Shown one piece after another: positions 517-59,560 of a stretch of 64,000 nucleotides of DNA; within the stretch, counting starts at the first letter, position 1, and every line of letters starts with the position of its first letter. This DNA is from a virus (lineage: Duplodnaviria; Heunggongvirae; Uroviricota; Caudoviricetes), in the IMG/VR virus record IMGVR_UViG_3300017991_000084, positions 26,830 to 90,829 of that record, one strand, 5' to 3'. Below the pieces are notes generated by a model that made no database searches, was not told where the DNA came from, and was given only the letters and a program-made list of their open reading frames with translations. The position numbers were made by a program, and so were the translations under genes.

Positions 517-556
517 CGTATACCCAAAGTATACGACAAATCTCTAGGGATACAAA
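517..556 (-). promoter_or_regulatory. sigma70-like promoter: TTTGTA -35 (551-556), 17-bp spacer, TATACT -10 (528-533), then conserved TTTGGGTATACG
   Basis: One of 7 near-identical elements in the window; followed by CCTTTGAGGAG RBS and the ATG at 508. Confidence 0.6.
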
Positions 557-1317
557 TGGTTCAGATGAAAAATCTCACAGCAAACCTGATTGATCCTCTC
601 ACGGTCAGGCTCATCCGGTAGACTGGATCTGATCAGAGCCTCCTCAGCCAGCTTGAACAGCCGATCAGCCTCAGCCTTGACCTTCTCCAGAGACCACGCC
701 CCACGCTTGATAGAGACGATCTCCTCAGCGTCTGGACGATGAACCTGGAGCCTACCCGTAGACAGCAGCTCGATCCCCATCCGCAAGATCCGAATCAGGT
801 GCGCTGCGTTCTTCGTATCGAACCCGAACCTCTCCACCAGCTGTTTCCTCTTCTCACCCATGTAGCCCCTGCATGCAGCGTGCTCCATCTTGTGAAGCTG
901 CCCATGAGCATACCCAACGAAATTGGGATAGCACTTCTTGGTGACGAACAGGTCACGATTCTCAACCAAGAACTCCCCTGCCGCCGACAGCTGCATGTAC
1001 ATGTTGGGCTCCAGGAACAGGCACGAGAGGACATTCGGATTGCCCTTCTCCAGGAGTCTGACGAACTTCTTCAGCTCGTAGAAAACGATGTCCCACTCTT
1101 CATGGATCAGCGTCTTGGTCCCACGTGAACCGTACTCCTCCAGCCCATAGTAATACTCCATGGGAGGGATCACGATACCAATCGCATCTCTGTCATCGAT
1201 GGAATTAGGATCATGGCTGGGCCGGTAGGTCCCATGGGAGATGCTTCCCCGATAGGCCAACAGGATCGCGTGATCAAACGAGAACCTCTCTTTGTCTTGA
1301 ACTTCATTCGGAATCAT
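544..1317 (-). CDS. minimal nucleotidyltransferase, Pol-beta superfamily (RlaP / PF10127-like, RNA-ligase-associated type)
   Basis: hG[GS]-x9-13-DxD motif in YRGSISHGTYRPSHDPNSIDDRDAIGIV; 257 aa. Confidence 0.55.
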   Translation of the reverse strand: MIPNEVQDKERFSFDHAILLAYRGSISHGTYRPSHDPNSIDDRDAIGIVIPPMEYYYGLEEYGSRGTKTLIHEEWDIVFYELKKFVRLLEKGNPNVLSCLFLEPNMYMQLSAAGEFLVENRDLFVTKKCYPNFVGYAHGQLHKMEHAACRGYMGEKRKQLVERFGFDTKNAAHLIRILRMGIELLSTGRLQVHRPDAEEIVSIKRGAWSLEKVKAEADRLFKLAEEALIRSSLPDEPDRERINQVCCEIFHLNHLYP

Positions 1318-1501
1318 TCATCTTCTCCTCGATCTCAGCCAACACCCTCTTGGCTCTGTAGACATGGCAGTCTTCCCTTGATGCCAAATTGTGTGCCTGA
1401 CAAAATCCATGATGATCATGCCGACACTCGCCCTCCAGATATACCAAGTCTTCCAGGATACCCTTCATCTCTGCAATCAGTTCCCAAGTCTCAGCGTCCA
1501 T
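1304..1501 (-). CDS. hypothetical small protein
   Basis: Minus ORF tiled in the gene chain; Cys/His-rich. Confidence 0.3.
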   Translation of the reverse strand: MDAETWELIAEMKGILEDLVYLEGECRHDHHGFCQAHNLASREDCHVYRAKRVLAEIEEKMNDSE

Positions 1502-1766
1502 CAGATTCCCTTTTCAATTCGTCCCACTTCTCTGTGTTGACCGCCTCCATGAACTCCACACACGCTTGTATCTCTTTATCAGGCAATGTTGAAGGCCACT
1601 CCAAATTGTACTTCAGATCCCGGTTGACCGTGAACTTACCCTGTTGCACGATTTTCAACAGGCCGAGCACAATAGAATCCAGGCGCTGCTTCTCCTGGAA
1701 GGCAGACAGTGCCTCTTGGTATTGCTTCACCTTGTCCCAGAAATCATGTGTCTCACTCTCTAACAT
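1491..1766 (-). CDS. hypothetical protein
   Basis: Minus ORF; RBS GAGAGGAGAAAGAG directly follows the tRNA-Ser 3' end. Confidence 0.4.
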   Translation of the reverse strand: MLESETHDFWDKVKQYQEALSAFQEKQRLDSIVLGLLKIVQQGKFTVNRDLKYNLEWPSTLPDKEIQACVEFMEAVNTEKWDELKRESDGR

Positions 1767-1782
1767 CTCTTTCTCCTCTCAA

Positions 1783-1872
1783 AGGAAGGCATGGGGATCG
1801 AACCCACAAGGCCCGTTAGGGCTCGCCTCCGTAGCAGGGAGGTGCCGTCGCCAACCTTCGGCTAGACCTTCC
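1783..1872 (-). tRNA. tRNA-Ser(GCT), type II with long variable arm
   Basis: Acceptor GGAAGGT/GCCTTCC; D stem GCCG/CGGC with long D loop; anticodon stem CCTCC/GGAGG; loop CTGCTAC; variable arm CGAGCCCTAACGGGCCTT; T arm GTGGG-TTCGATC-CCCAT. Confidence 0.7.
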
Positions 1873-2229
1873 GCTATGACACCACGACCAATGAGCAGCA
1901 ACCCTTGTCACTGTCCCAATGCCCACATCGTTCCTCAATGCACTTCTCTCTGTACGAATCAATGGGACCTAAAACACATCCATGTGCCTTGTCCCGCTCC
2001 AAACTCAACCGTGCCATATGTATGCATAGATCTTTCATCCTACTCCTCCCACTCAGGCCCACACTCACTGTAGAAGTCATGAAGCAGATCACCCTTCGTT
2101 GGGTATGCGATGCTCTGCACATCCGGATCGTCCTCAGGACTCACGCGCCAACCTTGCTCATCTTCAAACAACGTGAACGGCTCGACGTCATCCAGCATGA
2201 TTCTTTCCACGTTCTTCATCTCTTCCTCC

Positions 2230-2559
2230 TCAATCAAACACGGAAAACAGGAACACACCCAACGATGAGAACTGATCCTGTCTCTCTTTAGCATGCATCT
2301 CAAGCATGAGATGAATATCAGTCACCCGAAGATGATCCATGTCCACTTGTTGAAGATCGATGCCCAGCTGATCTATCTTAACTAGGATTTGACCAATGCA
2401 GATTGTATCAGCTTCGAACGGATTACAACCTCGCAACATATGAATCTCACCCACATCCGGACAGTCTCCTGTATAGAGATCCTCTTCCAGTTGACACGTC
2501 CACTCCTTGTCCTCTTTCGTGTATGGCTTGTAAGCGCCGTACATGAGATAGATTGTCAT
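2230..2559 (-). CDS. hypothetical protein
   Basis: Minus ORF; leader AAAGGAGAAAGAGATG directly after the tRNA-Ser(TGA) 3' end. Confidence 0.4.
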   Translation of the reverse strand: MTIYLMYGAYKPYTKEDKEWTCQLEEDLYTGDCPDVGEIHMLRGCNPFEADTICIGQILVKIDQLGIDLQQVDMDHLRVTDIHLMLEMHAKERQDQFSSLGVFLFSVFD

Positions 2560-2575
2560 CTCTTTCTCCTTTCAA

Positions 2576-2667
2576 CGGAGGGTGAGGGGATCGAACCCAC
2601 AAGGCCCTTTAAGGGGCTCGCCGGTTTTCAAAACCGGAGCAGTCGCCAGCCTTCTGCTTGACCCTCC
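2576..2667 (-). tRNA. tRNA-Ser(TGA), type II
   Basis: Acceptor GGAGGGT/ACCCTCC with G73; anticodon stem CCGGT/ACCGG; loop TTTGAAA; variable arm CGAGCCCCTTAAAGGGCCTT; T loop TTCGATC; paralog of the tRNA at 1783-1872. Confidence 0.7.
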
Positions 2668-2767
2668 ATACTATTAAAACGCTCCCTTGCCAGTTATATC
2701 CCTGGCTGTTCTGGAACCCAGCAACCACGTCGCTGCGCCCTCACTGAATCCCACATCCCTCAAAGCC

Positions 2768-3109
2768 TTATACTGACTCCGGTACACGCTCTTCAGTATC
2801 GCATTCATCAATCTTCTCATTCTTCCACGCCTCCAAGAAAGCCTCTGCCTCTTCTTTCGTGCCCCAGTAGCCGGGAGCCCAATGCAACGCTTTGAGATCA
2901 TCCTCCAGTGTCACACCAAAACCAGGACTACAGTAGCCAGTGCTCCCATTGATAGTGCCATCCTTCCACAGGTAGACAGCTCGTTCGCCCCAGTTCGTAC
3001 AGATGTACCATCCGACAAGGTCCTTGGTGAAGCTACTCTTGTAGGAGCACACCCGGAAGCCCTTGCCAATCAAAGACAACATTCTCTTCTCGATCTCCAC
3101 CCAGCTCAT
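2768..3109 (-). CDS. hypothetical protein
   Basis: Minus ORF, 113 aa. Confidence 0.35.
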   Translation of the reverse strand: MSWVEIEKRMLSLIGKGFRVCSYKSSFTKDLVGWYICTNWGERAVYLWKDGTINGSTGYCSPGFGVTLEDDLKALHWAPGYWGTKEEAEAFLEAWKNEKIDECDTEERVPESV

Positions 3110-3276
3110 ATCACCTCTCCGAAATGGCCATCAGTTTGTAGTCGCTCGCCCATCGTATGGGAGGCGGCTCAACGTGAACCTCAAACCGCCTGGCGCTCTT
3201 ACAGTAGTACACATACGCCAGCCGCCCAGTTTTGTTCAGGAAATCTTGGGCACGATGGCACGCATTGACGAATCGC

Positions 3277-4724: not shown

Positions 4725-4725
4725 T

Positions 4726-4763
4726 GCTACCTAAAGTATACCACAGATCTGCTAAGGTACAAG
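4726..4763 (-). promoter_or_regulatory. sigma70-like promoter: CTTGTA -35 (4758-4763), N17, TATACT -10 (4735-4740), TTAGGTAG
   Basis: Member of the repeated promoter family; the TTTTTCTGCAAAAAA motif lies 13 nt upstream at 4776-4790. Confidence 0.55.
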
Positions 4764-7335: not shown

Positions 7336-7665
7336 TTAGCGCACCTCCCCAGTCGCCTGCTTCAACACCTCAGCTGCGTAGTCCAGGTCATCGTCATTCG
7401 GACGACAAGCGAACCAGCCACCATTCTCACGGAACCCACAGTCCAGCAGCTTGCGAACACACTCCAGGAGATTGTCTCGCTCCGAAGCACTATGCCGCTC
7501 AGCCTTCTGGGCCTCATAGAGCCTCGTCCGCTCTTGCTGCTCGTGCCTCTGGCACAGTTGCAGGGCAACGCTGTCTCCAGGCTTGCACAGCTCTGCACCA
7601 CAGATTCGACATTCGGTTGCGGTCTCAGTTGCCATCACACATCTCCTCAAAGGATTAATGTACAC
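7336..7665 (-). CDS. hypothetical Cys-containing protein
   Basis: Minus ORF directly downstream of the promoter at 7659-7698 and the CCTTTGAGGAG leader. Confidence 0.45.
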   Translation of the reverse strand: MYINPLRRCVMATETATECRICGAELCKPGDSVALQLCQRHEQQERTRLYEAQKAERHSASERDNLLECVRKLLDCGFRENGGWFACRPNDDDLDYAAEVLKQATGEVR

Positions 7666-7698
7666 CTAAAGTATACGCCATCCTGGAGAGAATGCAAA
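7659..7698 (-). promoter_or_regulatory. sigma70-like promoter: TTTGCA -35 (7693-7698), N17, TATACT -10 (7670-7675), TTAGGTGTA
   Basis: Exact 17-bp spacer; conserved downstream TTAGGTGTA and CCTTTGAGGAG before the ATG. Confidence 0.65.
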
Positions 7699-9259
7699 TC
7701 AAAAATCAGGAATCGCATCCGGATCATTCACCATCTCCGGATCATGCGCCGATACCGTGCGAGAGATGTACGTACTGTACAGGCCCTCACAGTGCTCGCA
7801 TCTGAGTATGTACAAGTGGCTCCCATAATTCTCCGCATTCCGCATTGGAATGTCAATATCCACCACCTTGTTGCACCTAGGACACTTCATCGTCCGCTCC
7901 CATCACATCTATCGGAATCAGCTCATACACCAGCTGGCCCCACCACTGCTCATCGTCCAAATCAACCCACCGTGGAGCCTCCTCGAAGAGCACCTTCCGG
8001 TTCTCAAAGTCCACCTCGATATTCCGGACCTTGGCCAGGAAGCCGATCTCACGTTGCTCGGTGACGATCCTCTTGACACCCTCGGCATCCTTCGCACACC
8101 GGCCCCGAATCGCACCATCCCAGTAGCCATCTGTTGACACGATCCACACCATCATTTGGAATCCCCCTCAAGACCGTACTCCGCGATAGCTGCCAATCGT
8201 CCAGCCTTCACCGCCTCACGTATCGCAATCCGCAGACAGTTCCCGCATGGCTTCACCGAGATTATATCTCTCACCTTGGTTGCCACCACCGGCGCTCCAC
8301 ATTTCTCACACCATAAATTCTCCATCAGGCATCCCCACATAATGGCAACCGGACCACGGCAGACCCTTTTCCTCCGCTGTCTCCTGGCCCTCTTGTAGAC
8401 ACAGGCTGCGATTCTCTTCCACATCCTCAGGCTCATCGGAATGGTACTCAGCCACACACTCAGAACCTACGTAGATCCGCATCCCATGTTCGTCATACTC
8501 TCCGTGAACGTACATCACTGCCCCTTCTTCATTCGAGCCAGCACGTCAGTCCGCAGCAGCTGCATGATGTGCCAGCCCCGATCAAAGTCCCCAGCATTGC
8601 TTGCGTAGGAGATCAGGTAGCTCACAGCTTCCTCATCCGACAATGCTACGATATTGTCCATGATTGTCTGTCGCTCTTCGGGCTTCAGCATGACTCAGCT
8701 CCTACATCAAAGATCCGAGATCGCCCCACGGCATCCCGCTCGACCACTGCTTGTGTATCCGCAAAACAACTCATCACCTTCCCCTAACAGGACAAATCAC
8801 AGGGAGCATCACCGCAGGTCTTGCACTCGACAGGAGAATAGTTGCAACCCTGCTGCGCCTCACCATCCACGGTAGGACCTCCACACTCAGGACAGATCCC
8901 ATTGACCTCGTCATCTCGATACTTCCAACCATCACAACAGCTCATCGTTCATCCTCCTCTGAGCCCTCTCACGAATTTTCCACTTCACAGACTTGGGAGA
9001 CCGCCCCTCAATGATTCCCTTCTCCAACAAGCTCTTTGCCAGCAAGCCTGAATATGCCATAGCGTAGGAAGGTCCTCGATCCTCGATAGCCTCATCGACC
9101 ATCTGCACATCCCTTGCATCCCAATTCTTCCTACAGTTAGACCAAGCATTGTGGTACAGCCTCATCTCTTACTCCAAGCACGCCTCTATGCATCACGGCG
9201 TAGAATTCCACAAACGCTATGGCAGCTGCAACCAACATGCAGTCTACGATACTCATCGT

Positions 9260-9454
9260 TCAGCCCTCACACCGATATCGATACATCTTCTTAACCAACT
9301 TACTCCACGACTGACCCACCCACGCCACGATCCGGAAGTTGTGCTTGTGCAGCGTCAGATGGACATGATTGCCACCCGCCAGCTTGATCCACACCTGATC
9401 CCTGCCCTGTAGATCCTCTTCTGTGATCGTCAGTGCCAGTCGGTCAAGTTCCAT
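9260..9454 (-). CDS. hypothetical protein
   Basis: Minus ORF downstream of the promoter at 9479-9518. Confidence 0.4.
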   Translation of the reverse strand: MELDRLALTITEEDLQGRDQVWIKLAGGNHVHLTLHKHNFRIVAWVGQSWSKLVKKMYRYRCEG

Positions 9455-9478
9455 ATCTCAGCTCCTCAAAGGGTTTCA

Positions 9479-9518
9479 GCTTACACCTAAAGTATAAGCC
9501 ATATCCCAAAGAATGCAA
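9479..9518 (-). promoter_or_regulatory. sigma70-like promoter: TTTGCA (9513-9518), N17, TATACT (9490-9495), TTAGGTGTA
   Basis: Same architecture as the other six; followed by CCCTTTGAGGAG. Confidence 0.65.
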
Positions 9519-9522
9519 ATGA

Positions 9523-9768
9523 CTAATCGTCCTCTTCGATCATTTCCATGAACGTCCGAATAGCCTCATCGATCTCGTCCACCTCGAACACCGCAGGCCC
9601 TTCGGTGCAGTATCCGTTGTACACGTTGATCTCATCCCCAGACTCAGAGAAGAAGTTGCTGATAGACAGGTCATCACCGTCCACCTCAACCATGTCCGTC
9701 TCCATCAGAGCCCGCTTGATATCCTTGTGCGTATTCGCTACTGCCTTGCCCAAGCAATCGATCAACAT
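9523..9768 (-). CDS. hypothetical acidic protein (start moved to the internal ATG at 9768 behind a GAGGGAG RBS; the track gives a GTG start at 9789)
   Basis: Minus ORF MLIDCLGKAV... Confidence 0.4.
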   Translation of the reverse strand: MLIDCLGKAVANTHKDIKRALMETDMVEVDGDDLSISNFFSESGDEINVYNGYCTEGPAVFEVDEIDEAIRTFMEMIEEDD

Positions 9769-9923
9769 GGTTTCATCTCCCTCGAACACAGCACGTTAGG
9801 GCACCTCAGGCAGGAGTTGCACCTGCTTCCCACGGTCTCTTGCGGAGAACACCTCAAGCCGATCAAGCTTGGCCGACAACTGATCAGGTTATCGGATGGG
9901 GTCGCCCAGTGGTTTAGTAGCAT
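9762..9923 (-). CDS. small Cys-rich protein (53 aa, below the ORF-track cutoff)
   Basis: My minus-strand reading gives ATG at 9923 after GAGGTG, with CxxC-type pairs (CNSCLRC), ending in ATGAAACCATGTTGA across the next start; it sits between the promoter at 10008 and the next gene. Confidence 0.3.
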   Translation of the reverse strand: MLLNHWATPSDNLISCRPSLIGLRCSPQETVGSRCNSCLRCPNVLCSREMKPC

Positions 9924-9996
9924 AGACGCACCTCAACTACGATCAGTCTCTGAGGTATCCTAACATGCTGTATTCAGTTGTTAAAGAAAATGCCGT

Positions 9997-10036
9997 ACAC
10001 TAACCAAAGTATACGGCATCCGTTGCACAATCCAAA
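9997..10036 (-). promoter_or_regulatory. sigma70-like promoter: TTTGGA (10031-10036), N17, TATACT (10008-10013), TTGGTTAG
   Basis: Family member; it drives a 220-nt region holding only the small ORF above. Confidence 0.5.
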
Positions 10037-10390
10037 TTGTTTTTCAGAAAAAATCACTTCCCATCTGCGAAGTGGCTCATCCTCCCTCCGAATCGCTCAA
10101 ACAACTTGTCATGGAACTCATGTCCGCTCTCGGCAATAACACATGGATTGGACGAGCACGCAGTACCCTTCCCATCCAGGCCAAGACCTGCCCACGCTAC
10201 GCCCCACGGAAACGCCTGCTGGTGCGTTACGATGAACGGTCTGCCCACTGAACAGACACACACTTTGCCCACAAGACACTCTCCTGCTTCCGGCATTCTC
10301 ATGATACATCCTCCTTACAACTCGATCCAGATAGTGCGGCATATCACCTGCACCCACAGAGGCACTCCCTCCGTGTTACCCAGATCACCC

Positions 10391-11707: not shown

Positions 11708-11767
11708 CCTTAGTCTCCTTTACCATCCAACCTACGTCCTGTATTTGGTTCCACCTGAATTCATCAC

Positions 11768-12460: not shown

Positions 12461-13132
12461 TCAAGACTCATCTTTCTCGTCTTCCTTTTTCTTCTTGTCC
12501 TTGTCAGAGCCAAACCGTGCCAGCTCCTGTTTGTTCACCTTACCCTCATACGGCTCACTCTCGTGAATCGTAATGTCCTCTGGATTCTCTGGCCTGGAGA
12601 AGTAGGTACATCCATCTTCATCCTCATGCAGCCAGCATGGATCGTTGTTGTCCTCGTATGTCTTACCTCCATCCTTCGAGAAGCACGCCGGGTTTCGCCT
12701 TGACTGCCACAGCTCCTCACTCACTTCCATCCACTCATCCGGATTGTCCGTCAACGGAGACAGTGGCTTCCAGTTCGCTAGGTTATCGAAGATAGCTCTG
12801 ACCATCGCAGCGCTCATCCCGGAATGGTTCTGTGAGTCAAACACATTGACCAGATCCAACACCGCTTCACCTAGCATCCCATCGTAATCACTGTCAGCCT
12901 GCAAGAGTCCAGCCGCCTTGACTTCATTCTCGGCCCATCTCAGGAACTGACTCTTCGCTTCGTTGCAGAACCGTTCGACGTCATCCATGCACTCGTCAGG
13001 AATGTGAACAGTCTCTAGGATCTGATACACTGCCGTTGCCAGCTGACCCCAGGTCATGTCCTTCTGTCCCTTGACATATGCCAACTGCACACCGGCACTA
13101 CCACACTCTACCAAATCCCTGAATTCATCCAT
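12461..13132 (-). CDS. hypothetical protein
   Basis: 223-aa minus ORF with a Lys/Glu-rich tail. Confidence 0.4.
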   Translation of the reverse strand: MDEFRDLVECGSAGVQLAYVKGQKDMTWGQLATAVYQILETVHIPDECMDDVERFCNEAKSQFLRWAENEVKAAGLLQADSDYDGMLGEAVLDLVNVFDSQNHSGMSAAMVRAIFDNLANWKPLSPLTDNPDEWMEVSEELWQSRRNPACFSKDGGKTYEDNNDPCWLHEDEDGCTYFSRPENPEDITIHESEPYEGKVNKQELARFGSDKDKKKKEDEKDES

Positions 13133-13144
13133 CCCTAGTCCTCC

Positions 13145-13636
13145 TTAGTTCCATTCAAGTATCTCAATGTCCTTCGGATCGAATGCCACGAACGCCCAGC
13201 CGGATCTACCCTTACCAGCTTCTGGCTCTACAAATGCGGCTCCATCATATCCATTTTTCTGTAAAAACCTCACGAACTCTTCCCCGTCCTCACCGTCGAA
13301 CAGCTCCCATGTCTCCACGGATGTGAGCCACTTACGGTTGTAGCCAGCTGCCTCCCACTTGTCATCCAGTGTAGTGTCATGCTCCAGATCGATCACCTTG
13401 TCCAGATGCAGCTTGACCTTTGCTACGTTCTTCCCGAAGTCCCTTGCCAACTCCTCGTCTGGCGCAAAGAAGAACCCAGTCCTCTTGACTGCCTCTGTCC
13501 CGAAGACCGTACTCACCTTCCCACCCGTCTGCTTGAACCTATCGAATGGCTTTGAATTCGTACCATGATAGACCACGTCTGGGACCTCCACTGTCTTGGC
13601 CTCTACTATGTCGAGCGCCTTCTCGAACTCGTTCAT
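13145..13636 (-). CDS. ADP-ribosyltransferase-fold protein (H-Y-E clade; resembles the catalytic domain of Tpt1/KptA RNA 2'-phosphotransferase)
   Basis: VVYHGTNSKPF..., GFFFAPDE, KWLTSVETW, to be compared with KptA LYHGT and VWLTST. Confidence 0.4.
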   Translation of the reverse strand: MNEFEKALDIVEAKTVEVPDVVYHGTNSKPFDRFKQTGGKVSTVFGTEAVKRTGFFFAPDEELARDFGKNVAKVKLHLDKVIDLEHDTTLDDKWEAAGYNRKWLTSVETWELFDGEDGEEFVRFLQKNGYDGAAFVEPEAGKGRSGWAFVAFDPKDIEILEWN

Positions 13637-14724: not shown

Positions 14725-15327
14725 TCAGCCCTCCTGGCTTACATACTTCTTGGTCTTTCGTTTGTGGCAAGCCACGCACAATGTCTGAAGGTTCTCAGGC
14801 TCCAGCGTTCCACCCTCTGCGTGCTCCACAATGTGATCCATATGCCACAGCGTAGTCCACCGGCCCCACGTCGGATCGGTGTTGAATCCACACTTCTTCA
14901 TGGCCAGCAGCAGAGTCTCCAGCACATCCTTGTAGTGCCACTTCTCCTTGCTGCACTGCCTGTACGTATGATTCACTAGGCTCCGCAGGATCTTCAGCTC
15001 ATGATCCAGCTCCGTTGTATCCAGCCCACACTCTTGGCAGATTCCATTCTCACGCCTCTCTAAAGCATTACGTGCCCAGTTGGAATATGTTCGCTCCATG
15101 GCATTCTTTGAGCACGCATCACTGCACCAAGCTCTGTACCTATTGCCCTGATTGATCCGCTCCCCACAGTAGCGACATACCCAGTAGCCCTCACTGTCCT
15201 TAGGCAGCTTGGGATAATTCTCTTCCAGCCTCTTTGTTCTGCTCTTCGATTTGCGCTTGGGCATCCTCAGCTGCCTTTCTTTCCTGGATCGTTGGACCGT
15301 AAGCCTGACGCATGTGCCCACACCCAC
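14725..15327 (-). CDS. HNH endonuclease
   Basis: HNH signature LWHMDHIVEHAEGG...CVACHKRKT plus Zn-binding Cys pairs. Confidence 0.7.
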   Translation of the reverse strand: MGVGTCVRLTVQRSRKERQLRMPKRKSKSRTKRLEENYPKLPKDSEGYWVCRYCGERINQGNRYRAWCSDACSKNAMERTYSNWARNALERRENGICQECGLDTTELDHELKILRSLVNHTYRQCSKEKWHYKDVLETLLLAMKKCGFNTDPTWGRWTTLWHMDHIVEHAEGGTLEPENLQTLCVACHKRKTKKYVSQEG

Positions 15328-16089: not shown

Positions 16090-17919
16090 TTATTCGACTT
16101 CCTCGTCCGTGACCTCTCTGATCTGTGTCTCTCCATACAGACGCTCCCATTCTTGCTGGCCATGTTCATAGACAGCCACGACCCTCTCCTCTTCCTTGCC
16201 CTCATCCAGCTTCAGCTCCACTAGCTTATCGCCCACAGCCCATCTAGGTGCAGGACCTGTTTCCCACTGTACTGGTACGAAGCTACTCAGGTCATGGTTC
16301 CGTGAAATTCTACGATTCAGCAATCTTTTCTGGAATGCCTCTTCCAGCGCCAATGCAGCCTTGGCCTTCTCACCTACCATCTTGTCAGGGCTTCTCACGA
16401 AGTCCTCGATGTGGAAGTCTTCCAATCTCAGGATCTTTCTGGACAGATAGTCAAACATCTTCTGCTTGTCCAGCTCACCCTCACCCACAGCATTCTCTGC
16501 CACACTGATGAACTTGTCGATGGTATCCACGCCAGCGTCCAGGCTCTCCCGCATAGCCTCTTCCTCAGCTGTAGATGTCTCACCCATGTGAACCGTGAAC
16601 AATGTAGGATCTGGGTCCAGGTTCATGTAGGCCAGATTGATCTGACACATCCTGTAGATACCCTCGGTCAGTGCTCTCTGCAAACGTCTCGCGTTACGTG
16701 CGAACCGAATGTCCAACGCCTCCAGTGCCTCACTACCCAGAGCACCAGTGGCCTCGTTCACCCATCCACCCAGCAATGACATAGGTGTACGCAAAGATAC
16801 AGCCAGCTGGTTTCTAAGCTGCTCGACATCTACGATCCAACGGATGTCCGCTTCACCACCAACCTTCTCGTATGCCAGATCTCCCACGTCACCCCAGACA
16901 GGAACGAAAATATCCTCCATCACACTGAATGGATTCTGCCGACTGTCGTAGTATGGGTTGTCCGGATCTGTGTCAATGGCTCTGGCTCTCGTGATCATGG
17001 TTGCATACTGATCCACCAGCGCCGCCACTGCCTCAGCACTACTCTGGTTCACCGCCAGCTTCCAGATGTACCGGATGATACCTCTGGTGATACGTGCCAT
17101 CAGCAGGCTGTCCTCTGCCAGTCTCAGTCTCTTGTAGGTCGGAAGTGCATTGATCAACAGGCTCGTGCCATACCTTGTAGTCAGCTGGTATGTACTTTCC
17201 CCTGTGATGATGTTCATGCTGCGTACTTCCTTCTGGTTCTCATACGCACTGAACCGCTTCTTCTTTGCGCCCAACAGACGGAAGTGTACCCAGTCCCACG
17301 GAGGCATCAGCTTGTAGGCATCGTTCTCATGGTAGCCCTGACCCTGTGATACTGAATTCGGTGTGTTCGGAGTCCAGTAGAATCCAATCAGCTGACCCTT
17401 GTAGTCAGCTCGACTAACAGAGATAGGATGCTCATTGTCATTAACTGCAACGATTCCCATCCCAGGCCCAGCCTCTGGACGTACAAACAGATCTCCGAAA
17501 GCACCAAGGTTAAACGCCCAGTCATAGATCCTCTCCTCCATTCCGATTCGGTCGAGCATGTCATTCAGCTCGTTCTCATACTTGTCTGAATCCGCTGTGA
17601 TCCACACTGAGGACTCATGCATCGGGCTCCAGGCGCTGGCCACATCTGCGTACAGCTCCATTGAAGCTCCCACCATCCAGTGGTCCAACGCACGTTGCAG
17701 CTGACCATACAGGCTCAGTCTGTCGTAGTTCACCTGGATGCTCTCTTGGATGGTTGTGGTCAGTGTGCCCTGTGAGATGCCGATCTTCTTCAGCAAGTCG
17801 ATCCCATCCTTGTCCAGCCCGTTGACTACATCCTGTGTTGGAACATAAGGAGGCTTGCTTGTAACGTCCCTCAGTATGTCGAACTCATTCTCCTCAATGC
17901 GAAACGGATTCCTTCTCAT
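16090..17919 (-). CDS. large hypothetical protein (609 aa); portal-like was considered but has no support
   Basis: Longest ORF in this area, GGGAG RBS; no diagnostic motif recognised. Confidence 0.5.
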   Translation of the reverse strand: MRRNPFRIEENEFDILRDVTSKPPYVPTQDVVNGLDKDGIDLLKKIGISQGTLTTTIQESIQVNYDRLSLYGQLQRALDHWMVGASMELYADVASAWSPMHESSVWITADSDKYENELNDMLDRIGMEERIYDWAFNLGAFGDLFVRPEAGPGMGIVAVNDNEHPISVSRADYKGQLIGFYWTPNTPNSVSQGQGYHENDAYKLMPPWDWVHFRLLGAKKKRFSAYENQKEVRSMNIITGESTYQLTTRYGTSLLINALPTYKRLRLAEDSLLMARITRGIIRYIWKLAVNQSSAEAVAALVDQYATMITRARAIDTDPDNPYYDSRQNPFSVMEDIFVPVWGDVGDLAYEKVGGEADIRWIVDVEQLRNQLAVSLRTPMSLLGGWVNEATGALGSEALEALDIRFARNARRLQRALTEGIYRMCQINLAYMNLDPDPTLFTVHMGETSTAEEEAMRESLDAGVDTIDKFISVAENAVGEGELDKQKMFDYLSRKILRLEDFHIEDFVRSPDKMVGEKAKAALALEEAFQKRLLNRRISRNHDLSSFVPVQWETGPAPRWAVGDKLVELKLDEGKEEERVVAVYEHGQQEWERLYGETQIREVTDEEVE

Positions 17920-19374
17920 CCTGATCTCCCTTACTATTCCCTTTTTCTATAAAAAGACAGAAACCTGCGAACAACCTACATCTCTATACGTAGCCGCTCA
18001 CAGTTTGTTCTCTACCAACTATCAGCCCACATGGGATAGTCCTCGTCGTCCTCATCGTAGTACATGTCACCGCCCTCAAATCCGCAGCACCCATACGCCC
18101 TAGCGTACCGATCCTCATCGAACTTGTGCTGGATGAGCATTGCTGCCGCTCCCCTGTCGATGTGCTCCCTCATAGCCTCAGGCAGATGTGGCTCCAGAAT
18201 CTCCCACTGCTTGTCGGTCATTGGCAGGTACTTCCACTCCATCCGGCCCTCGATCTGATGAAGCTCCACTGCCCTCTCCAGGATTTCCTTTGAAAACAAT
18301 CCCATGCTATCCCTCACACATCACATTGTCCACTTCCCAGTCTATCATGTCGATCTCGATCTCATCCACAGCGTGCTCCCACGGATGTTCCTCTGCCTCC
18401 TCAAGTGATTCCGCTTCCACCACCACAGACTTCCTGACAGTAACTGTCATCTCCACTATGAATGTTCGCTTAGCCATCACTCACCTCCACATGCTCAGCT
18501 TCCACCCTGTTAAGATACCTCATGATCATGCCCACCGAAAATCCCTCCACATCAAGAATGAGTCTCCCTCTGCTAAGGCTTAAGACATCTCCGTTGGGCA
18601 TCTTCTTCCTAAGGAGATCATAGGGCATATCGTAGATCCAACCCGCCTCCTGTGCCACCCTCATAACCTGATCGTCACGTTCATGCCATGGGAACCTCAT
18701 TCCTCCTCCTCCTCTGTATCCACCCACCTCTGAGTATGGTTGCTGTAGAACTCCAGGCGCTGCCACTGCCCACAATTGCTACAGTACCTGGACCGGCTTG
18801 CCCATCTCACCCAGCGCCGATGATATCCCATCCTGCATAGCCACAGCTTGAACTTGCTTCTCTTAGTGAACATCAGCCCCAGTTCTCCCCAAAGATTGCC
18901 ACCACCAGACCTACCACTACAGCTATCACCAGCGCCAAGGCACCCAGATACACGTATGGTCCACCTGCCTCATAGATCCTCTGTGCAATGAAAGCCAGCC
19001 CCAGCACTATCTCCTTCGCTCCCCAGAGCACCGCTGGAAGCAGGACCATGGTCAACATTGATATCCCGAACCCCCTCAGGAATCTCCTTACGTATGGCCT
19101 CCACCTATCCCATGTGGTCACCTCCCACATCTCACTGCCTATCACGTCCTCATGCATGGTATCCTCTCGCTCTCATCCAGCATTCCTCACACAGCTTGAT
19201 GTACCCTCCCGGCATAGCGAAGGCACTCACGGTCATCTTCAGCTCCCCGCACCTATCACACTCTCCCATGCCCATACATACGCCCTTCTGGTACGCTTCC
19301 AGTGCCGCCCTCTTGGCCTTCTGTCTCAGCATGCCCTCGACTACCGTCATTTCGGTCAACCCTCATTTCTGGCC

Positions 19375-19430
19375 CAAAAACAAACATAGGGTACGTTCTA
19401 TCCGACAAAACCACCCAGAAAACGTACCCC
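19375..19430 (-). terminator. putative intrinsic terminator (9-bp stem GGGTACGTT/AACGTACCC followed by a U-rich tract on the minus strand)
   Basis: Inverted repeat at 19389-19397 and 19421-19429; minus strand then reads TATGTTTGTTTTT. Confidence 0.4.
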
Positions 19431-19911
19431 TCCACCTCTATATAAATATCTCGACCCCTCTCTGTTCGGAAAAATCTGAGAATTTTGCAATTTTTTTTAC
19501 TGAATCAGTGGTGGACTCACCTCTTTTGCGTTGGGTAATGGGCACCAATCTGGCAGTGTCTTAGTGGCCTCAGCCGACTCCTTTTCACTCACTCCCTCCT
19601 GTGGAATACGGAACCCTTCTGCCTCTGGATGGTGACAATCCCACCCTGAATCATAACTCATTCCGTAGTTGCAATCATACCTACAGAAGGGACAGTCACC
19701 GCATTTTTCTATTAAAAGGTTGAGTCTTTTCCCCATGTCCACTTCGCTCCCAACACCAAGCACACGATCAACAGTACGCCCAGCCCCATCAATGCCGAGC
19801 CCACAGTATCAGCCAATAGACACCCACCAGCCAACAACACAGCCGCCCCTATAGACGCCACGATGAACACCATAGCCACCAGGAAACTCTTCCCTATCCA
19901 CTCAAAGATCT

Positions 19912-24552: not shown

Positions 24553-25184
24553 TTATCCAAATACGGAAGGAATGTCTCATGCATCCACACTCTCGTATCC
24601 TCCAATGTCTTATCTCGATTGTCCAACATCAAGTCAAACTGTCGCTCGTCTGCCAGAATGGGGAAGTACATCCCATCATCTATGTTCCTCAATCCATTCT
24701 CCACCATGTACGTCTGCACATGATCCAGCGCCGTCTCACTCGCATGCTGATCAACTCCCGCAAACGGAGCCCGCATCAATCGAATCACGAACCCGTCCAT
24801 ATCCTGCACAGCCTTCAACTCATTGGGGAACCGCACATCCGGCACGAAGATCACATCCGCATCCGACTCTGCTACCTGTCGCTTCCACGCATTGATCCAA
24901 CAGTCTTCCCACAAGCCACGGAACCAGTCGGTCCCAATCACCTGAAGCACCTGCCGAATAGTCTGACCACAAGGGAGCATCCGGTTCTTTGTCTCATCTG
25001 ACTCCAGATCTGCAATCGTCAATTCCCACTCCCACGGCGTAAAGCAATCAATGACCGTGCGCTTCAGCTCATCGGCCATTCGGATAACTTGGACGTCACC
25101 CATCTCTGGTCCGAGCATGTCCAAGAATGTACTCTTGCCACCCTGCTTCTTTGCGGAAGCGCCTAACACAAAAGGTCCACTCAT
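24534..25184 (-). CDS. deoxynucleoside monophosphate kinase (T4 gp1-like)
   Basis: P-loop GASAKKQGGKST; RQVLQVIGTDWF and FVPDVRFPNE resemble T4 dNMP kinase. Confidence 0.6.
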   Translation of the reverse strand: MSGPFVLGASAKKQGGKSTFLDMLGPEMGDVQVIRMADELKRTVIDCFTPWEWELTIADLESDETKNRMLPCGQTIRQVLQVIGTDWFRGLWEDCWINAWKRQVAESDADVIFVPDVRFPNELKAVQDMDGFVIRLMRAPFAGVDQHASETALDHVQTYMVENGLRNIDDGMYFPILADERQFDLMLDNRDKTLEDTRVWMHETFLPYLDKWLGAR

Positions 25185-25435
25185 TCTTCTCCTCCTCCAA
25201 CATCCTTCCGAGTTTTCTCTGCCTTCTTCGCCTCTTTGTATCCCTTACTTCGGTAGTCTGTCTGATAGAAGCCAGATCCCTTGAACAGGATACCAGCCCC
25301 AGCTCCGATCAACCGCACCAACTTATGCTTCCGGCAACACGGACACACCTTCTTCGACTTATCCTTTATGCTCTGGAACAACTCAAAGCGAAACTCACAA
25401 TTCGTACACTTGTAATCATAGGTCGGCATTTGCAA
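25181..25435 (-). CDS. FmdB-family zinc-ribbon protein
   Basis: MPTYDYKCTNCEFRFE...CPCC. Confidence 0.6.
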   Translation of the reverse strand: MQMPTYDYKCTNCEFRFELFQSIKDKSKKVCPCCRKHKLVRLIGAGAGILFKGSGFYQTDYRSKGYKEAKKAEKTRKDVGGGEE

Positions 25436-26012
25436 ATCCCCTCACGGCCATGTCCTGACGCAATGTCTTGAGTAGCTTCTCTTCCCAATGCACGATCCCA
25501 TGCAGTGTCTTCCCGTAGTGCTCAGCCAGCTCCCGAACAGAAATCTCATCCACGAACCTATGATACAAGAAGTAGAAGTCTTCACGTGTAATGACACCAG
25601 TACTAATCAGATGGTTAAAAAGCTCACGCACTTCCACCTGACAATGCATGGGAGCATCAGAAACACTCTCCTCACCATATAATATACGACGTTGGGTGGA
25701 GAATCGTCTCCTAGATTCTCGAAATTTTTTGCCAATTTCAGATTTCACATAGGCAACCACCCGCATGCGAATCTCATCATCGTCATAACCCTCAGGGAGA
25801 GTCCCCAATGCTCGAATCAATCCGATAATCCCAATCTGATACAGATCATCAAATTCCAAGTCCACCACTCCTTGGTAGCTCCTCAGCATGTGGTGAACCA
25901 CACCCAACACCACACCATCTAACAGTGTCACCACATCATCCAGCGCCTCAGAAGAATGACTTTCCTGATACACATGCACGGTCTCTTCCAAGTTGTCCAT
26001 CGCCGTTGCCAT
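25416..26012 (-). CDS. phage RNA polymerase sigma factor (sigma-70 family, regions 2 and 4)
   Basis: Region 2-like DLYQIGIIGLIRAL; region 4 HTH ISVRELAEHYG. Confidence 0.55.
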   Translation of the reverse strand: MATAMDNLEETVHVYQESHSSEALDDVVTLLDGVVLGVVHHMLRSYQGVVDLEFDDLYQIGIIGLIRALGTLPEGYDDDEIRMRVVAYVKSEIGKKFRESRRRFSTQRRILYGEESVSDAPMHCQVEVRELFNHLISTGVITREDFYFLYHRFVDEISVRELAEHYGKTLHGIVHWEEKLLKTLRQDMAVRGFANADL

Positions 26013-49797: not shown

Positions 49798-51208
49798 CCC
49801 TCTTCTCCTAGACGCACAGTATAAAGACTACCGCAGCTGCAAAGATCGCAAAAAATGTGCCAAACCAAATTGCCAACACCTTATTACTCGGCTCGTAGTT
49901 ATCCATTCCGTCTCCTACGCTTTGAAATTGATCACTGGTGGAACGTCCAGGTGTGTCATCCGACAAGCCTGAATCCACCGACGCACCATGGCCTGATGCT
50001 TGGGAGACTGCATGTGCATGTCCCTAGCATGCTGCCCGTAGAACTTGCATCTACAGGCACTGCACGAGCCCACCCACGGCTCCTTCTCCTGCCCCTCGAT
50101 CTGAACATAGTAGGGCTCGATCCAAGCCTTCGGTATGCGTCTCAATTATCTTCTCCCTCATCTTCCATCTTCGTGAATGTGACTCTCTCCGAATAGTAGC
50201 CGTTCGACTCACCATACCATCGGATCGTCACCGCACCCTTCGCTGTAGCCAGATCGTAGAACGTCCACGTGAAGCTCTCACGCCAGTCCTCTTCACGCTC
50301 ATCCTCACCCTCCGGATCTTCGTTAGAACTGACATTCTCACGTGCCGTCAGGATCGGAGATCCAATCAGATCCTCCAGATCACCACAGATGTCCTCGATA
50401 CGAACAGACTCACAACAGTCCTGTATGTGGAACATCAGGAACCGCTCACCGTCCGTCGTATGGAAGGTCAACGACTCCTCATTCTCGTCTCTCACAATAC
50501 TTGTCAGGGTCTTGCCCACTAGCTCGTTGATACTCATGTTGCGTCCCCAATAAAGGAATTCACCAATGCTCATCTCATATACCTCCTACGCTCCACATGC
50601 ATGAATGTTCGCTAGATAGTCTGCATCTGGCTCAAAATCGTGCAGATGCTCACCAGCGCTCCCGTCATCATTCCAACCAGACTGACGATCATCCCGATCA
50701 ACGCTCCATATGTCAGCCAGTCCTGAAACTTCGAACTCTTCTGCTGCCTCCCACCTGCAATCAGACCGATCACAATAGCCACCACGGATAGTCCCATGAG
50801 AACCATGCTCGGCCCAAAGATCGGATCACTCAATGCTTGTCCCATCGTCATCGTCTCACCTCCCGCTGGCGACGGTCCAGGAGATTTGTGTACGCATTCG
50901 CGTGCCACAACAGGACGTCAATCAACTCATCACGGTCCATGTCACCAATGCGTTTTCTATTTAATGCCCACGTGGCATTCAGCAGCTCTTCTTTTTCCAT
51001 CACACCGATCCTCCTCTCAAAAGCCCAACCGGCACAAAACTTGTCGCCACTGCTCCGGAAGCGTAGCAATCTCTCCAGCTCCTGAATAGGAACCCGCCAG
51101 GAATCCGAACCACGTCAGTCATTGGCATTGTCAGTCCTTTCTCTGGCTTGTAGATGATCTTCCGATCACCCATCTTCATCATGAGAAACTCGAACTCTCC
51201 CATTTCCA

Positions 51209-55931: not shown

Positions 55932-55993
55932 TCTCCTTACACATGGTGGGTGACCCAGCTAACGGGCCACCCACCGCTCGACGGACCCAATTC

Positions 55994-57016: not shown

Positions 57017-57076
57017 GTTCTTACCCTTTCCAAATGCACACAGTTTGTCTTTGACACGACCACACAGCCGCATCAC

Positions 57077-57316
57077 CTATTTCTTCGACTTGCCTGCGAC
57101 CAACACAGTCACGCCTGTAGCAGGCAACGCCACACCGACGCACGCCACCAACTTCAACAGCTCCAGGTTCCGGGTAGCATGGTACGGCACTTCAGAATCT
57201 TCGACCTGCTGCACCGCGATCTCTCTAGAGACCTGCTCACCTGCGGAGCCTTGGATGAGCCCAATGACTCCAAAGGTCACGAGCCACAGGAACAACAAAA
57301 ACACCAACTTCTTCAT
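57077..57316 (-). CDS. small membrane protein (possible NfeD-like partner of the SPFH protein)
   Basis: Two hydrophobic helices; sits immediately upstream of the SPFH gene. Confidence 0.3.
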   Translation of the reverse strand: MKKLVFLLFLWLVTFGVIGLIQGSAGEQVSREIAVQQVEDSEVPYHATRNLELLKLVACVGVALPATGVTVLVAGKSKK

Positions 57317-58087
57317 GCTCTCTCCTCTCAATTGACGCCCAGAACCCACCTGAGCAACTCGATTGACGTCTCTACCCTACGCAAGGCAGACATGTTGGTT
57401 TTCAACTCACCATCTTTCGCACGAATCTTCTTCTTCAATGCAACGGACTTGATGTACAAGTCACGCAACGTCTTCTGGATCTCCTTCTCGGTTCTCATGG
57501 TAGTTTCTCCCTTTCACACAGTAGATGCTCTCGATCCCTCGCATGGTGAACAGCAAGTCCAACAACTCCTCAAGCATGGTGGTTGCCGTCAGCAGCAGCT
57601 GCTTGTAGAATGTAGCTGGCGTGAATCGGAATGCGTCCCGATACGGCAACACCATCTCTTGTTCCAGCTCCGGATACCGCTCCATGAAGTGCAAAACCAG
57701 CACCTCGGCCTCATCCGAATACAGAGTCTGAAGCTGGTATTTCAGGAGCACCCTATTGACCACCTTCACCATGTTGTGATCTTTAATTCTCACGTCTCTG
57801 TCTCCACACACCGCAAACACAGACATAGTTGCGAGCACGTAACTCGGCACGCATATTCCGCAGACCAGCCGGATTGTTTGTCACCAGTATGAACGCCGAT
57901 GGATAGATGAATCGGTCAAACATCCACCGCAACAGGTCCATCCCACTCTCACCTGGACCCAAATCATGATCCATGTAGACAAGGTCGAAGTGGTGAGGAC
58001 CATTCAGGATACATTTCGCCATCTCAGCAGTTCGTGCTATGGCATCCACACCCTTCAAGTCACGAAGATCATCGATCAGTAACTTTC

Positions 58088-58375
58088 TCAGTCCCATGAT
58101 CCCATCGCCCTCAGTGCTCGTTCCATTTTCGCTTCGAACAGCTCGCGGAACTTCGGATGATCGATGCTGAACCACAGCGTCTGTATCACAATGACGCCGA
58201 CCAGCGCCCGCAAGCGCACATCCACATGTCCACTCTGAGTCCACTTTACTCGTGCTGTCAACAATGGATGATCGGCATGAGTGAAGATCAGCCTCGTGTT
58301 CACCCCCTCCACCTGTCTTGCATACAGGAAGTAATCACGTGTCATCATCAGATCTATCACTTGCTTCTCATCCAT
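58088..58375 (-). CDS. hypothetical protein, probably leaderless
   Basis: ATG lies 6 nt downstream of the -10 TATACT of the promoter at 58373-58410. Confidence 0.35.
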   Translation of the reverse strand: MDEKQVIDLMMTRDYFLYARQVEGVNTRLIFTHADHPLLTARVKWTQSGHVDVRLRALVGVIVIQTLWFSIDHPKFRELFEAKMERALRAMGSWD

Positions 58376-58410
58376 ACCTAAAGTATACCTCAGAAAAGCC
58401 CACGTGCAAA
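58373..58410 (-). promoter_or_regulatory. sigma70-like promoter: TTTGCA (58405-58410), N17, TATACT (58382-58387), TTAGGT then ATG
   Basis: Exact family architecture; no room for an RBS. Confidence 0.55.
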
Positions 58411-59093
58411 TGAAATTCCAGTTTCAATCGCAGAACTCACCGGCCCCCAACCAATATAGGCCAGGAGAATCCCGCACAACACCCCTTCCAGGAACCTTAA
58501 CATTGTCTCACCCTTCTCGACCTCGGAATCGTAGCTCTTGCCACAGCGTTTCAGTGCCGACGATGGCTGCATTGATATGCTCGTGCTTCTTGCCCTTCGC
58601 CGTCGCCTCCTCCGCTGCATCGATAGCCTTGCCCACCACCTTCAGAATGTGACGGGCCTTGTCAAACGGAGACGCCTCTTTCTTCTTGCGTTTAGCCATT
58701 CTTGCCCATCCTCTTTGCTCTCAGTTTCTTCTCCAGCTCCTGGAGAAGCTTGTCACGGTTCCACTGGCCATATCGACACAGCCAATCATGCTCAAGCTTC
58801 TCCAGGAGGGAATTCAGTACGCTACCTCGTTGCCCAGGAGACATTCGCTTCATCAGTCCCATCCTCGACAGCCACAGTAATATCGATCCTTGTCACGGTC
58901 ACCTACCAGCTCGAAGAAGGGCAACTTCTCAGGATCAGACGGAGCCTCTTTCCGGCAGTAGGTGCAGATTGCCATGCGTCCAGACAGATCAGGCACCTCT
59001 TCCATGGGCTCCCAGCAATTGTGAATGCCGCAACCCCACTTATCACCCTTCATGGCATGCGCCGCACAACCACACCTCATGAGCTGCCCGGAT

Positions 59094-59501
59094 TTAGTCA
59101 TTGCTCTTGACCTTTCGAATTGAGATACTCGGATCACCTAAATCCCTCATCTCAAGGATCTTTTTGTGGACCTTGGCGAAACCAAGCAACTGATCTGTGT
59201 TCCACGACGTCTTGCCTTTGGACCAAACAGCCTGAAGCCTTTCACCCTTGACGGTCTCACCCAACACGAGCACAGCGTCCTTGACGTCCACAGTCGCATC
59301 TTCGATCATCTCGGCATTGGACTCGATCTGAACCTGGAGAATGTCATACTTCTTCTGGGCCTTCGGATTCTCGGCCAGCAGCTTGGCAATCAACTTTCGC
59401 TGCTTGTCCTGTACCAGAGCCTGGGCTTCCTTCAGCTCACTCAGAGCTGCCAGCTTTGCCTCAATGGCTCTCACTTTGGCATTTCTCTTCTGTGCTGTCA
59501 T
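59094..59501 (-). CDS. hypothetical coiled-coil protein
   Basis: Minus ORF downstream of the promoter at 59521-59560 with a TTTGAGGAG leader. Confidence 0.45.
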   Translation of the reverse strand: MTAQKRNAKVRAIEAKLAALSELKEAQALVQDKQRKLIAKLLAENPKAQKKYDILQVQIESNAEMIEDATVDVKDAVLVLGETVKGERLQAVWSKGKTSWNTDQLLGFAKVHKKILEMRDLGDPSISIRKVKSND

Positions 59502-59520
59502 GTGTTTCTCCTCAAATTGA

Positions 59521-59560
59521 ACAATATGTGCCTACACCTATAGTATACGACATATTTGGA
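59521..59560 (-). promoter_or_regulatory. sigma70-like promoter: TTTGCA (59555-59560), N17, TATACT (59532-59537), ATAGGTGTAGG
   Basis: Exact 17-bp spacer; family member. Confidence 0.6.

Follow-up and report, generated by a model that had tools for sequence, protein, structure and literature searches.

The window analysed here is a 64,000-nt stretch of a virus of the class Caudoviricetes (IMG/VR record IMGVR_UViG_3300017991_000084, positions 26,830 to 90,829), in which all plausible genes lie on the minus strand. It contains a family of seven promoter-like sites (P1 to P7), all likewise on the minus strand and each comprising a –35 hexamer, an exact 17-bp spacer and an exact TATACT –10 hexamer. 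Five sites lie at 0.5–10 kb and two at 58.4 and 59.5 kb, and five of the seven are joined to a short leader with a ribosome-binding site (RBS) and the ATG of an open reading frame (ORF). The sites and leaders are given below with their predicted transcription starts and their scores in a weight matrix drawn from related contigs:

519..556 (-), P1 promoter: –35 TTTGTA at 551–556, 17-bp spacer, TG at 537–538, –10 TATACT at 528–533, then TTGGG + TAT; predicted start the A at 521; 40.2 bits
491..511 (-), P1 leader: RBS CCTTTGAGGAG at 501–511, then ATG (491–493) of a 69-aa ORF at 284–493
4726..4763 (-), P2 promoter: –35 CTTGTA, –10 TATACT at 4735–4740, TTAGG + TAG; predicted start 4728; 31.7 bits
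7661..7698 (-), P3 promoter: TTTGCA-N17-TATACT (–10 at 7670–7675), TTAGG + TGT; predicted start 7663; 47.7 bits
7633..7653 (-), P3 leader: CCTTTGAGGAG and ATG of a 99-aa ORF at 7336–7635
9482..9519 (-), P4 promoter: TTTGCA-N17-TATACT (–10 at 9491–9496), TTAGG + TGT; predicted start 9484; 49.6 bits
9452..9473 (-), P4 leader: CCCTTTGAGGAG and ATG of a 64-aa ORF at 9260–9454
9999..10036 (-), P5 promoter: TTTGGA-N17-TATACT (–10 at 10008–10013); predicted start ~10001; 39.5 bits
58373..58410 (-), P6 promoter: TTTGCA-N17-TATACT (–10 at 58382–58387), TTAGGT; predicted start 58375; 29.6 bits
59533..59570 (-), P7 promoter: TTTGCA-N17-TATACT (–10 at 59542–59547), ATAGG + TGT; predicted start 59535; 45.3 bits
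59499..59516 (-), P7 leader: TTTGAGGAG and ATG of a 135-aa ORF at 59094–59501

These similarities are far beyond chance. The exact pattern TTTGYA-N17-TATACT has five matches in the window against 0.01 expected, and TATACTTTAGGTGTA with at most two mismatches also has five, against none expected. The weight matrix, which was built from 12 sites drawn solely from related contigs and is therefore independent of the window, was scanned over both strands and assigns the seven sites 29.6–49.6 bits, with the next-best window position at 6.5 bits and a shuffle maximum of 7.9. It recovers the same seven sites and no eighth member inside the window. A further site lies 2.1 kb past the left window end (L146:11863), within the 2.4 kb by which the window was extended on that side.

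An earlier, sequence-only reading of this DNA had proposed a seven-member minus-strand family, and the seven sites, the 17-bp spacer and TATACT all hold, with the seventh site now placed at 59533–59570 rather than 59521–59560 and the fourth extended to 9519. Its –35 consensus TTTG(C/T)A describes five sites (four with TTTGCA, one with TTTGTA) but not those with CTTGTA and TTTGGA. The downstream element that it regarded as invariant, TTAGGTGTA, is exact at only two sites, with one mismatch at one site, two to three at three and five at one, and the downstream positions common to all seven are just n-T-R-G-n-T-R. It had also named a weaker variant upstream of the DnaB helicase gene (49818–49843, minus strand; TTTGCA-N14-TATACT), which we reject: the spacer is 14 bp, the invariant TG described below is missing, the score falls below the matrix threshold and no such element precedes dnaB in the relatives L148–L150.

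Compared pairwise, the window copies share 31–53 identities over 95 positions, and orthologous sites are retained in relatives with 77–81% protein identity. Because the copies share so few positions, their similarity points to position-specific selection on function rather than to recent duplication. The family is thus real and well defined, although of an ordinary kind for phages, and its sequence, position-specific conservation, placement, orientation and conservation in relatives and in an unrelated phage lineage are established.

To describe the anatomy of the promoters we aligned 23 non-redundant sites from the window and its relatives and assessed the columns not fixed by the selection pattern. 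Invariant among these are a TG at –17/–16, 3 bp upstream of TATACT and overlooked in the sequence-only reading, and T at the second and sixth bases after the hexamer; the seventh base is a purine in 23/23 sites. G is strongly favoured at –13 and A at –20, as are an A before and a T after TTTGCA. The –10 hexamer, exact at every window site and at all but one site of the relatives (TACACT in L154), keeps TAnnnT with the essential A(–11) and T(–7). TTTGCA agrees with TTGACA at 4/6 positions with the G shifted by one, and the spacer is 17 bp everywhere. The optional extended –10 element (TG at –15/–14, TRTG in Firmicutes) does not occur in the window sites, where the TG is at –17/–16; a low-GC phage lineage unrelated to this virus, described below, does carry TGTG-n-TATACT. 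The zone upstream of the sites is weakly AT-rich (59% versus 51% AT).

The block downstream of TATACT resolves into a 5-bp discriminator, TTAGG, and a Y-R-Y (or Y-R-R) triplet whose centre lies 7 bp beyond the –10, with T-R-T or T-R-G at the start position predicted from sequence in 7/7 window sites. A cross-bacterial study describes a Y-R-Y triplet at this distance as a ‘start’ element, which sets where transcription begins and makes the promoter stronger (PMC12641261). The sequence-only reading had suggested that the block could be an operator, and one may elaborate this to propose that it is half of a dyad, GTATAC-N5-GTRTAC, bound by a dimeric phage or host regulator that switches the whole family. 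TATAC-N5-GTRTA is indeed an inverted repeat. The dyad of P1 is perfect over 8 bp (an 8–9-bp inverted repeat, TCGTATAC/GTATACGA, across –10 and +1; hairpin –9.4 kcal/mol, z –4.2), those of P3, P4 and P7 extend over 5–10 bp across –10 and +1 (10 bp across the –10 at P4; –10.3 kcal/mol, z –4.0), and palindromes of this type can act as operators, as an unrelated antitoxin promoter encountered by chance (L141) illustrates. Across the 23 sites, however, stem length is bimodal, nine sites having 3 bp (TAC/GTA only) and the remaining ones 5–14 bp, and the flanks of the long dyads differ in sequence yet stay complementary (CG/CG, GGCT/AGCT, GATGCCG/CGGCAT), a pattern of a nucleic-acid hairpin and not of a protein-binding site. 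The part of the block shared with the unrelated low-GC lineage is, moreover, TTAGGTA only. We therefore consider an operator quite unlikely, and the block appears better explained as core-promoter grammar, a discriminator plus start element. Hairpins are predicted at 5/7 window sites (–5.8 to –19.9 kcal/mol; –5.8 to –10.3 kcal/mol at P1, P3, P4 and P7), two sites being without one, and an attenuator role for those other than P5 is speculative because P5 alone is followed by a U-tract.

At five sites the ATG lies 34, 34, 34, 36 or 40 nt from TATACT. Four leaders with a common RBS had been described previously; CCTTTGAGGAG is exact in three of them (the sites at 533, 7675 and 9496), whereas the 59547 site carries ATTTGAGGAG. 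The RBS proper is AAACCTTTGAGGAG in three leaders and CCAGGAG in that of P2, and the consensus AAACCTTTGAGGAG is retained in relatives. These five sites would thus be compact expression cassettes, in which the promoter is fused to a 28–34-nt leader with a strong RBS and ATG. P6 represents a variant in which the ATG (58373–58375) of a 95-aa ORF falls exactly on the predicted +1. Since homologues of this ORF in three relatives (L148, L149 and L150) begin with the same residues (MD-K/R-Q-Q), the ATG is the true start codon, and a transcript from the predicted +1 must be a leaderless mRNA. The homologues in these relatives have an ordinary RBS and no promoter. The position of the P6 ATG also lends indirect support to the start position predicted for the family.

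All seven sites face ORFs downstream. None occurs between 10.1 and 58.3 kb, a 48-kb block with the genes for replication, nucleotide metabolism, terminase, sigma factor and portal, and the flanking regions in which they do occur hold ORFans, tRNAs, and RtcB, ligase, Tad3 and ADP-ribosyltransferase (ART)-like genes. The first ORFs downstream of the promoters have no family matches. At P1 to P4 the promoter abuts or overlaps the stop codon of the ORF before it (the stop is inside the promoter at P2, which has no hairpin, and directly before it at P3, which follows ORF 7699–7890), and these four sites are therefore best seen as internal re-start points in co-directional gene arrays. An orthologue of P2 lies upstream of the same gene at L120:17927, and P7, immediately downstream of a tRNA-Arg gene (59591–59663), has orthologues at the equivalent place in L128/L148 and L150. 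We propose that each cassette initiates expression anew and raises it along the arrays of small accessory ORFs that flank the replication and packaging block.

Gene content between cassettes varies among relatives while the cassettes persist, which raises the question of whether the repeats are mainly recombination linkers, that is, mobile promoter/stem-loop cassettes that shuffle ORFans and only secondarily act as promoters. Such elements are known as promoter-early stem-loop (PeSL) cassettes in phages RB49 and phi1, with one subclass in which the stem-loop overlaps the –10 (PMC2839356), as some stem-loops do here. In keeping with this idea, the sites flank ORFans, and L122 keeps the P5 promoter and hairpin without the RNA that follows them in the window. 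In L121 (L121:13040-13400), two tandem cassettes stand on either side of one 71-aa ORF. Their 53-nt cores, which run from the –35 to a point 15 nt beyond the start, are identical, and there is no similarity outside them, which suggests cassette duplication or gene conversion. Set against this, 31–53 of 95 shared positions provide too little continuous identity for efficient homologous exchange, and a linker role would add to promoter function, not replace it. We regard it as highly improbable that recombination is the main function of the family.

P5 differs from the other sites in launching what appears to be an untranslated RNA, and is surrounded by the following elements:

9983..10021 (-), P5 hairpin: 14-bp stem with the –10 within its 5' arm, then UUUUCUUU; –19.9 kcal/mol, z –6.9; conserved in L120 and L122
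10055..10074 (-), second terminator-like hairpin with a T-run, located where ORF 10054–10302 ends and just ahead of P5
9976..9988 (-), boxA-like element TTCTTTAACAACT, at ~+14 to +26 of the predicted P5 transcript
9765..10001 (-), predicted structured RNA from P5, ~230 nt, folding far better than shuffles (z –4.3)

The P5 hairpin resembles an intrinsic terminator. Transcripts that enter from upstream would fold into it and end there, and those started at P5, which lack the 5' arm, would escape. In this arrangement a promoter inside a terminator hairpin would launch a structured RNA led by a boxA-like sequence. The P5 orthologues in L120 and L122 are conserved nearly base for base. The ~230-nt RNA is predicted to form a long terminal stem around several hairpins, including a T-loop-like hairpin (CAGG-UGCAACU-CCUG), a fully conserved loop GCUACUAAACCA and three GAUC-containing loops. 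Between the window and L120, 16 of the 68 predicted pairs show compensatory changes, a comparison of two sequences given that scans of viral contigs and metagenomes returned only the L120-type copy. The RNA matches no Rfam family, and YrlA (Rfam RF02553) has no match in 9450–10100 at E up to 5. The 53-aa ORF annotated at 9762–9923 is probably spurious.

Antitermination leaders with boxA and Nus factors are of the rRNA type and are also known from CRISPR arrays and lambda nut sites (PMC5725501, PMC7665894). The boxA-like sequence of P5 precedes what appears to be an untranslated RNA. In the window's P5 only, TTTCTTTAACA agrees with the boxA consensus GYTCTTTAANA (PMC5725501) at 10/11 positions, although this consensus is gammaproteobacterial and may not be that of the host. 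A second difference is that the U-rich run doubles as the terminator tail; in the predicted fold it pairs with the RBS of the next gene (9523–9768).

In the relative L124 (L124:300-1250, minus strand) a family-like promoter and a boxA-like CTTTGACAACT stand ahead of tRNA-like units that each end in TTTTCTGTAGG. Rfam identifies one of these units as a tRNA (45 bits), and the motif GGUGCAAC is common to an L124 unit and the window RNA. The L124 unit at the analogous position has a weak YrlA match (20.9 bits against a gathering score of 69; E 0.12). RtcB accompanies Y RNAs in bacteria, and the window phage encodes RtcB. The RBS of rtcB is directly preceded by a conserved leader with a GGTGGGTG...CACCCACC hairpin (55932-55993, minus strand; also L149:~1920 and L150:~3600); two relatives have a family promoter just ahead of the leader, and in the window an SPFH-domain gene is found there instead.

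The unrelated lineage was identified by scanning viral contigs with an 18-base pattern, which found eight loci. All eight have extra family positions not demanded by the pattern, and four of them belong to a lineage of phages of ~40–50 kb with 35–40% GC. Comparison of this lineage with the window phage yields just two short matches and no convincing homologue, and the large proteins of the lineage show hardly any matches to Pfam, PHROG or known phage families. A matrix made from the low-GC sites only nevertheless selects the same seven sites in the window, at 14–32 bits against a shuffle maximum of 9.3. In these phages the motif heads an operon of small genes beside an AT-rich divergent control region whose repeats include TTGTTAGATAACCA (L129:5560-6400; also L123, L125/L152, L127, L154 and L155). 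BoxA-like leaders recur as well: a boxA-like sequence at ~+15 is found after P5, after one promoter of L124 and after several promoters of the low-GC lineage, where it occurs at 5/13 promoters versus ~0.005 expected per 41-nt search window (~0.07 across the 13). A scan of viral contigs with an exact 15-mer gave mostly chance matches, together with an unrelated hairpin family in 30%-GC contigs.

The seven sites are probably strong primary-sigma (sigma-70/sigma-A) promoters, most likely read by host RNA polymerase without phage help and serving as expression cassettes. In this model each site comprises the –35 (A)TTTGCA(T), the 17-bp spacer, TG at –17/–16, G at –13, TATACT, TTAGG and T-R-T/G, with the first transcribed base 7 bp after the –10. 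That sigma-70-type promoters face the genes they precede and are read by the host enzyme had been proposed from the sequence at the outset, and it is still the best reading. Host sigma is favoured because an unrelated lineage, in whose ~60 kb of partial contigs we found no sigma factor, uses the same extended motif, because boxA-like leaders follow the motif in both lineages, and because the grammar is that of primary-sigma promoters. boxA acts on host polymerase via Nus factors. Generic TTGACA/TATAAT matches are at or below chance throughout the window, and the family appears to be its only sigma-70-like promoter class; this too favours host sigma, because dependence on a phage sigma would leave the host enzyme nothing to read.

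The main competitor is a sigma factor of the phage itself, for which there is a candidate:

25416..26012 (-), diverged sigma-70-family protein of 198 aa, encoded directly after the large terminase

This ORF, rightly recognised as a phage sigma factor in the sequence-only reading, overlaps the terminase stop codon. Its product is also a candidate for recognising promoters of another class. It matches Pfam Sigma70_r2 (E 0.0027, below the curated cut-off), and a 12-sequence profile finds SigF, an S. aureus sigma factor (8x6g), FliA and RpoH at E 4e-4 to 0.05, with an alignment that includes a weak region 4 stretch. Every top Foldseek match is a sigma factor, which is supportive only as the structural model is weak (predicted local distance difference test score, pLDDT, 63). 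An identical copy of the protein is encoded on a 139-kb contig. At this locus (25181-26012) the sigma-like gene is followed by genes for a Zn-ribbon protein (PF09723) and a dNMP kinase, and all three are kept in three relatives.

Polymerase carrying this sigma factor could read the family as middle or late phage promoters, as with gp28/gp34 of SPO1 or gp36 of phiEco32. The protein is a genuine, if diverged, member of the sigma-70 family, neither the –35 nor the placement of the TG is canonical, and the high self-similarity of the family makes a dedicated reader plausible. Several observations oppose this. The unrelated small phages use the motif and yielded no sigma homologue in the ~60 kb of DNA fetched, which consists of partial contigs; in them the motif heads an operon by the divergent control region, which must fire first. 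No family site precedes the terminase, portal or other central genes, the window would on this reading be left without recognisable host-type promoters, and the grammar (17-bp spacer, TAnnnT, AG-rich discriminator and Y-R-Y at +1) is that of a primary sigma. We consider the phage sigma factor an unlikely reader of these sites.

Some considerations also weigh against recognition by the host's primary sigma. The TTTGCA –35 and the TG at –17/–16 are non-canonical, so that a specialised sigma is conceivable, the phage does encode a sigma factor with region 2 and a weak region 4 match, and its absence from the low-GC lineage refers to partial contigs. Any ‘early’ timing is deduced from gene content alone; indeed, which polymerase and sigma factor read the sites, where and when transcription begins, and what the hairpins and the boxA-like element do are all inferred from sequence. 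In addition, a scan of bacterial genomes with the 18-base pattern, using one genome per species, gave 14 matches, which we judge to be the chance level (~17 by our rough, uncomputed estimate), and it does not identify the motif as the consensus of a known host.

No host could be assigned from this genome scan. The L141 match is the antitoxin-operator palindrome mentioned above, and those in L135 and L137 (Aureispira) lack the family positions. The sole match with the full grammar lies ahead of a GC-rich ORF in a Phycisphaerae metagenome-assembled genome of 61% GC (L142:2860-2970), where an AT-rich upstream tract is followed by TTTGCAT-N-ATGGTG-TATACT-TTAGGTGG, a hairpin and TCTTTGACGAG. The neighbouring ORFs have no Pfam matches, and we regard this locus as a weak lead to the host clade. 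Eight of the 14 chance-level matches are from Bacteroidota, whose –33/–7 promoters (TTTG ... TAnnTTTG) resemble the family in the invariant TTTG at ~–36 to –33 and a T-run after the –10. The family has TATACTTTAG rather than TAnnTTTG, however, and the Bacteroidota matches lack the TG and other family positions. The window genes also have strong Shine-Dalgarno sites, unlike Bacteroidota. We therefore reject a Bacteroidota-type promoter, TATACTTTAGG giving TAnnTTTG in no register.

A second, late promoter motif was also sought. The sequence (G)TATAGA/TATAGT is found repeatedly in the 100 nt ahead of the portal gene, the gene before the terminase and several central genes, at these positions:

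17951, 17988, 19442, 28722, 39423 and 43204 (minus), (G)TATAGA/TATAGT

It has no strand bias and is not conserved upstream of the portal gene in relatives, and the regions upstream of portal and terminase are themselves not conserved between relatives. At most, (G)TATAGA is a weak candidate for another class of promoter. At 19360-19496 (minus strand) a long intergenic region with an A/T-rich stretch, a strong hairpin GGGGTACGTTTTCT...AGAACGTACCC and a subsequent T-run resembles a terminator between late-region operons.

The closest analogues of the family appear to be the T4-type early promoters with their PeSL cassettes and the host-takeover promoters of SPO1, with which it shares logic and layout. 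Like the T4-type elements, the family consists of many copies of a strong sigma-70-like promoter with extra conserved positions, its cassettes end in an RBS and ATG, and its sites cluster in variable regions rich in small orphan ORFs, the core modules for replication and the virion having none; some copies have a stem-loop over the –10, and the phage has a T4-like portal. It differs in hexamers that diverge from the Escherichia coli consensus, in a weak upstream AT-rich zone, and in the lack of a stem-loop in ~40% of copies and of a U-tract everywhere except at P5. Recombination and minicircles are described for PeSL cassettes, whereas the present family is known from sequence. In other respects the phage does not resemble T4 (its polymerase, terminase and portal are 23–34% identical to those of any cultured phage).

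In the SPO1 host-takeover module small early genes are clustered, and every one of them has both a strong sigma-A promoter and a strong RBS; SPO1 also has sigma factors of its own. SPO1 early promoters are canonical (TTGACA/TATAAT). The window phage is similar in that it is large, has its own sigma gene and re-promotes small genes individually with strong GGAG-type RBSs, and in that its nearest cultured relatives infect Bacillus or Listeria; it differs in its non-canonical hexamers and in the split of the module into two regions. Relative to these analogues the family is further set apart by the TG at –17/–16, the optional hairpin, the one leaderless member and the one RNA-only member.

The window belongs to a large uncultured phage with no close cultured relative, and the nearest cultured phages are too distant to indicate a host. 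Related IMG/VR contigs are 77–86% identical in portal, terminase and helicase, and two of the IMG samples holding them are from Ace Lake, Antarctica. G exceeds C by ~25% on the minus strand across the whole window. Recognised genes include RtcB ligase, DNA ligase, a DnaB-like helicase, an SNF2 helicase and a family-A DNA polymerase, in addition to the following:

26012–28021, large terminase
16090–17919, T4-like portal
12461-13636 and 14725-15327, Tad3 / ART-PolyVal / HNH region between portal and P5, mapped via L145
10391–11707, Laminin_G_3 protein

The Tad3- and ART-like genes are downstream of the portal gene; the Pfam families listed for the source contig include Tad3 (anti-Thoeris-like), ART-PolyVal (ADP-ribosyltransferase) and HNH. 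The window has 21 tRNA genes on the coding strand. Two are tRNA-Ser genes at 1.8 and 2.6 kb (1783-2668), and the other 19 form an array at 59.6–64 kb (59591-64000) that runs off the right edge, which is the contig end in the ENA assembly, so that the promoter of the array is outside the window.

These findings leave the general understanding of phage transcription unchanged. They provide a transcription map for a large uncultured phage lineage, with seven predicted starts, one leaderless gene and one non-coding RNA unit. The family marks small ORFs that are likely to be expressed strongly and independently, and which are candidates for host takeover or anti-defence functions. The motif may also report the promoter preference of the host group and could help to link phages to hosts. 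The parts most worth following are the shared non-canonical grammar and the P5 RNA. A bolder proposal, which we think more apt to be wrong than right by a wide measure, is that the grammar found in unrelated phages of 35–55% GC (ATTTGCAT, TG at –17/–16, TATACT, TTAGG and Y-R-Y) is the optimal primary-sigma promoter of an uncultured host clade with altered –35/spacer contacts, and that P5 with its boxA-like leader expresses a new Y-RNA-like or tRNA-like RNA in a phage encoding RtcB. If this were true, the grammar could be a host-assignment signature.

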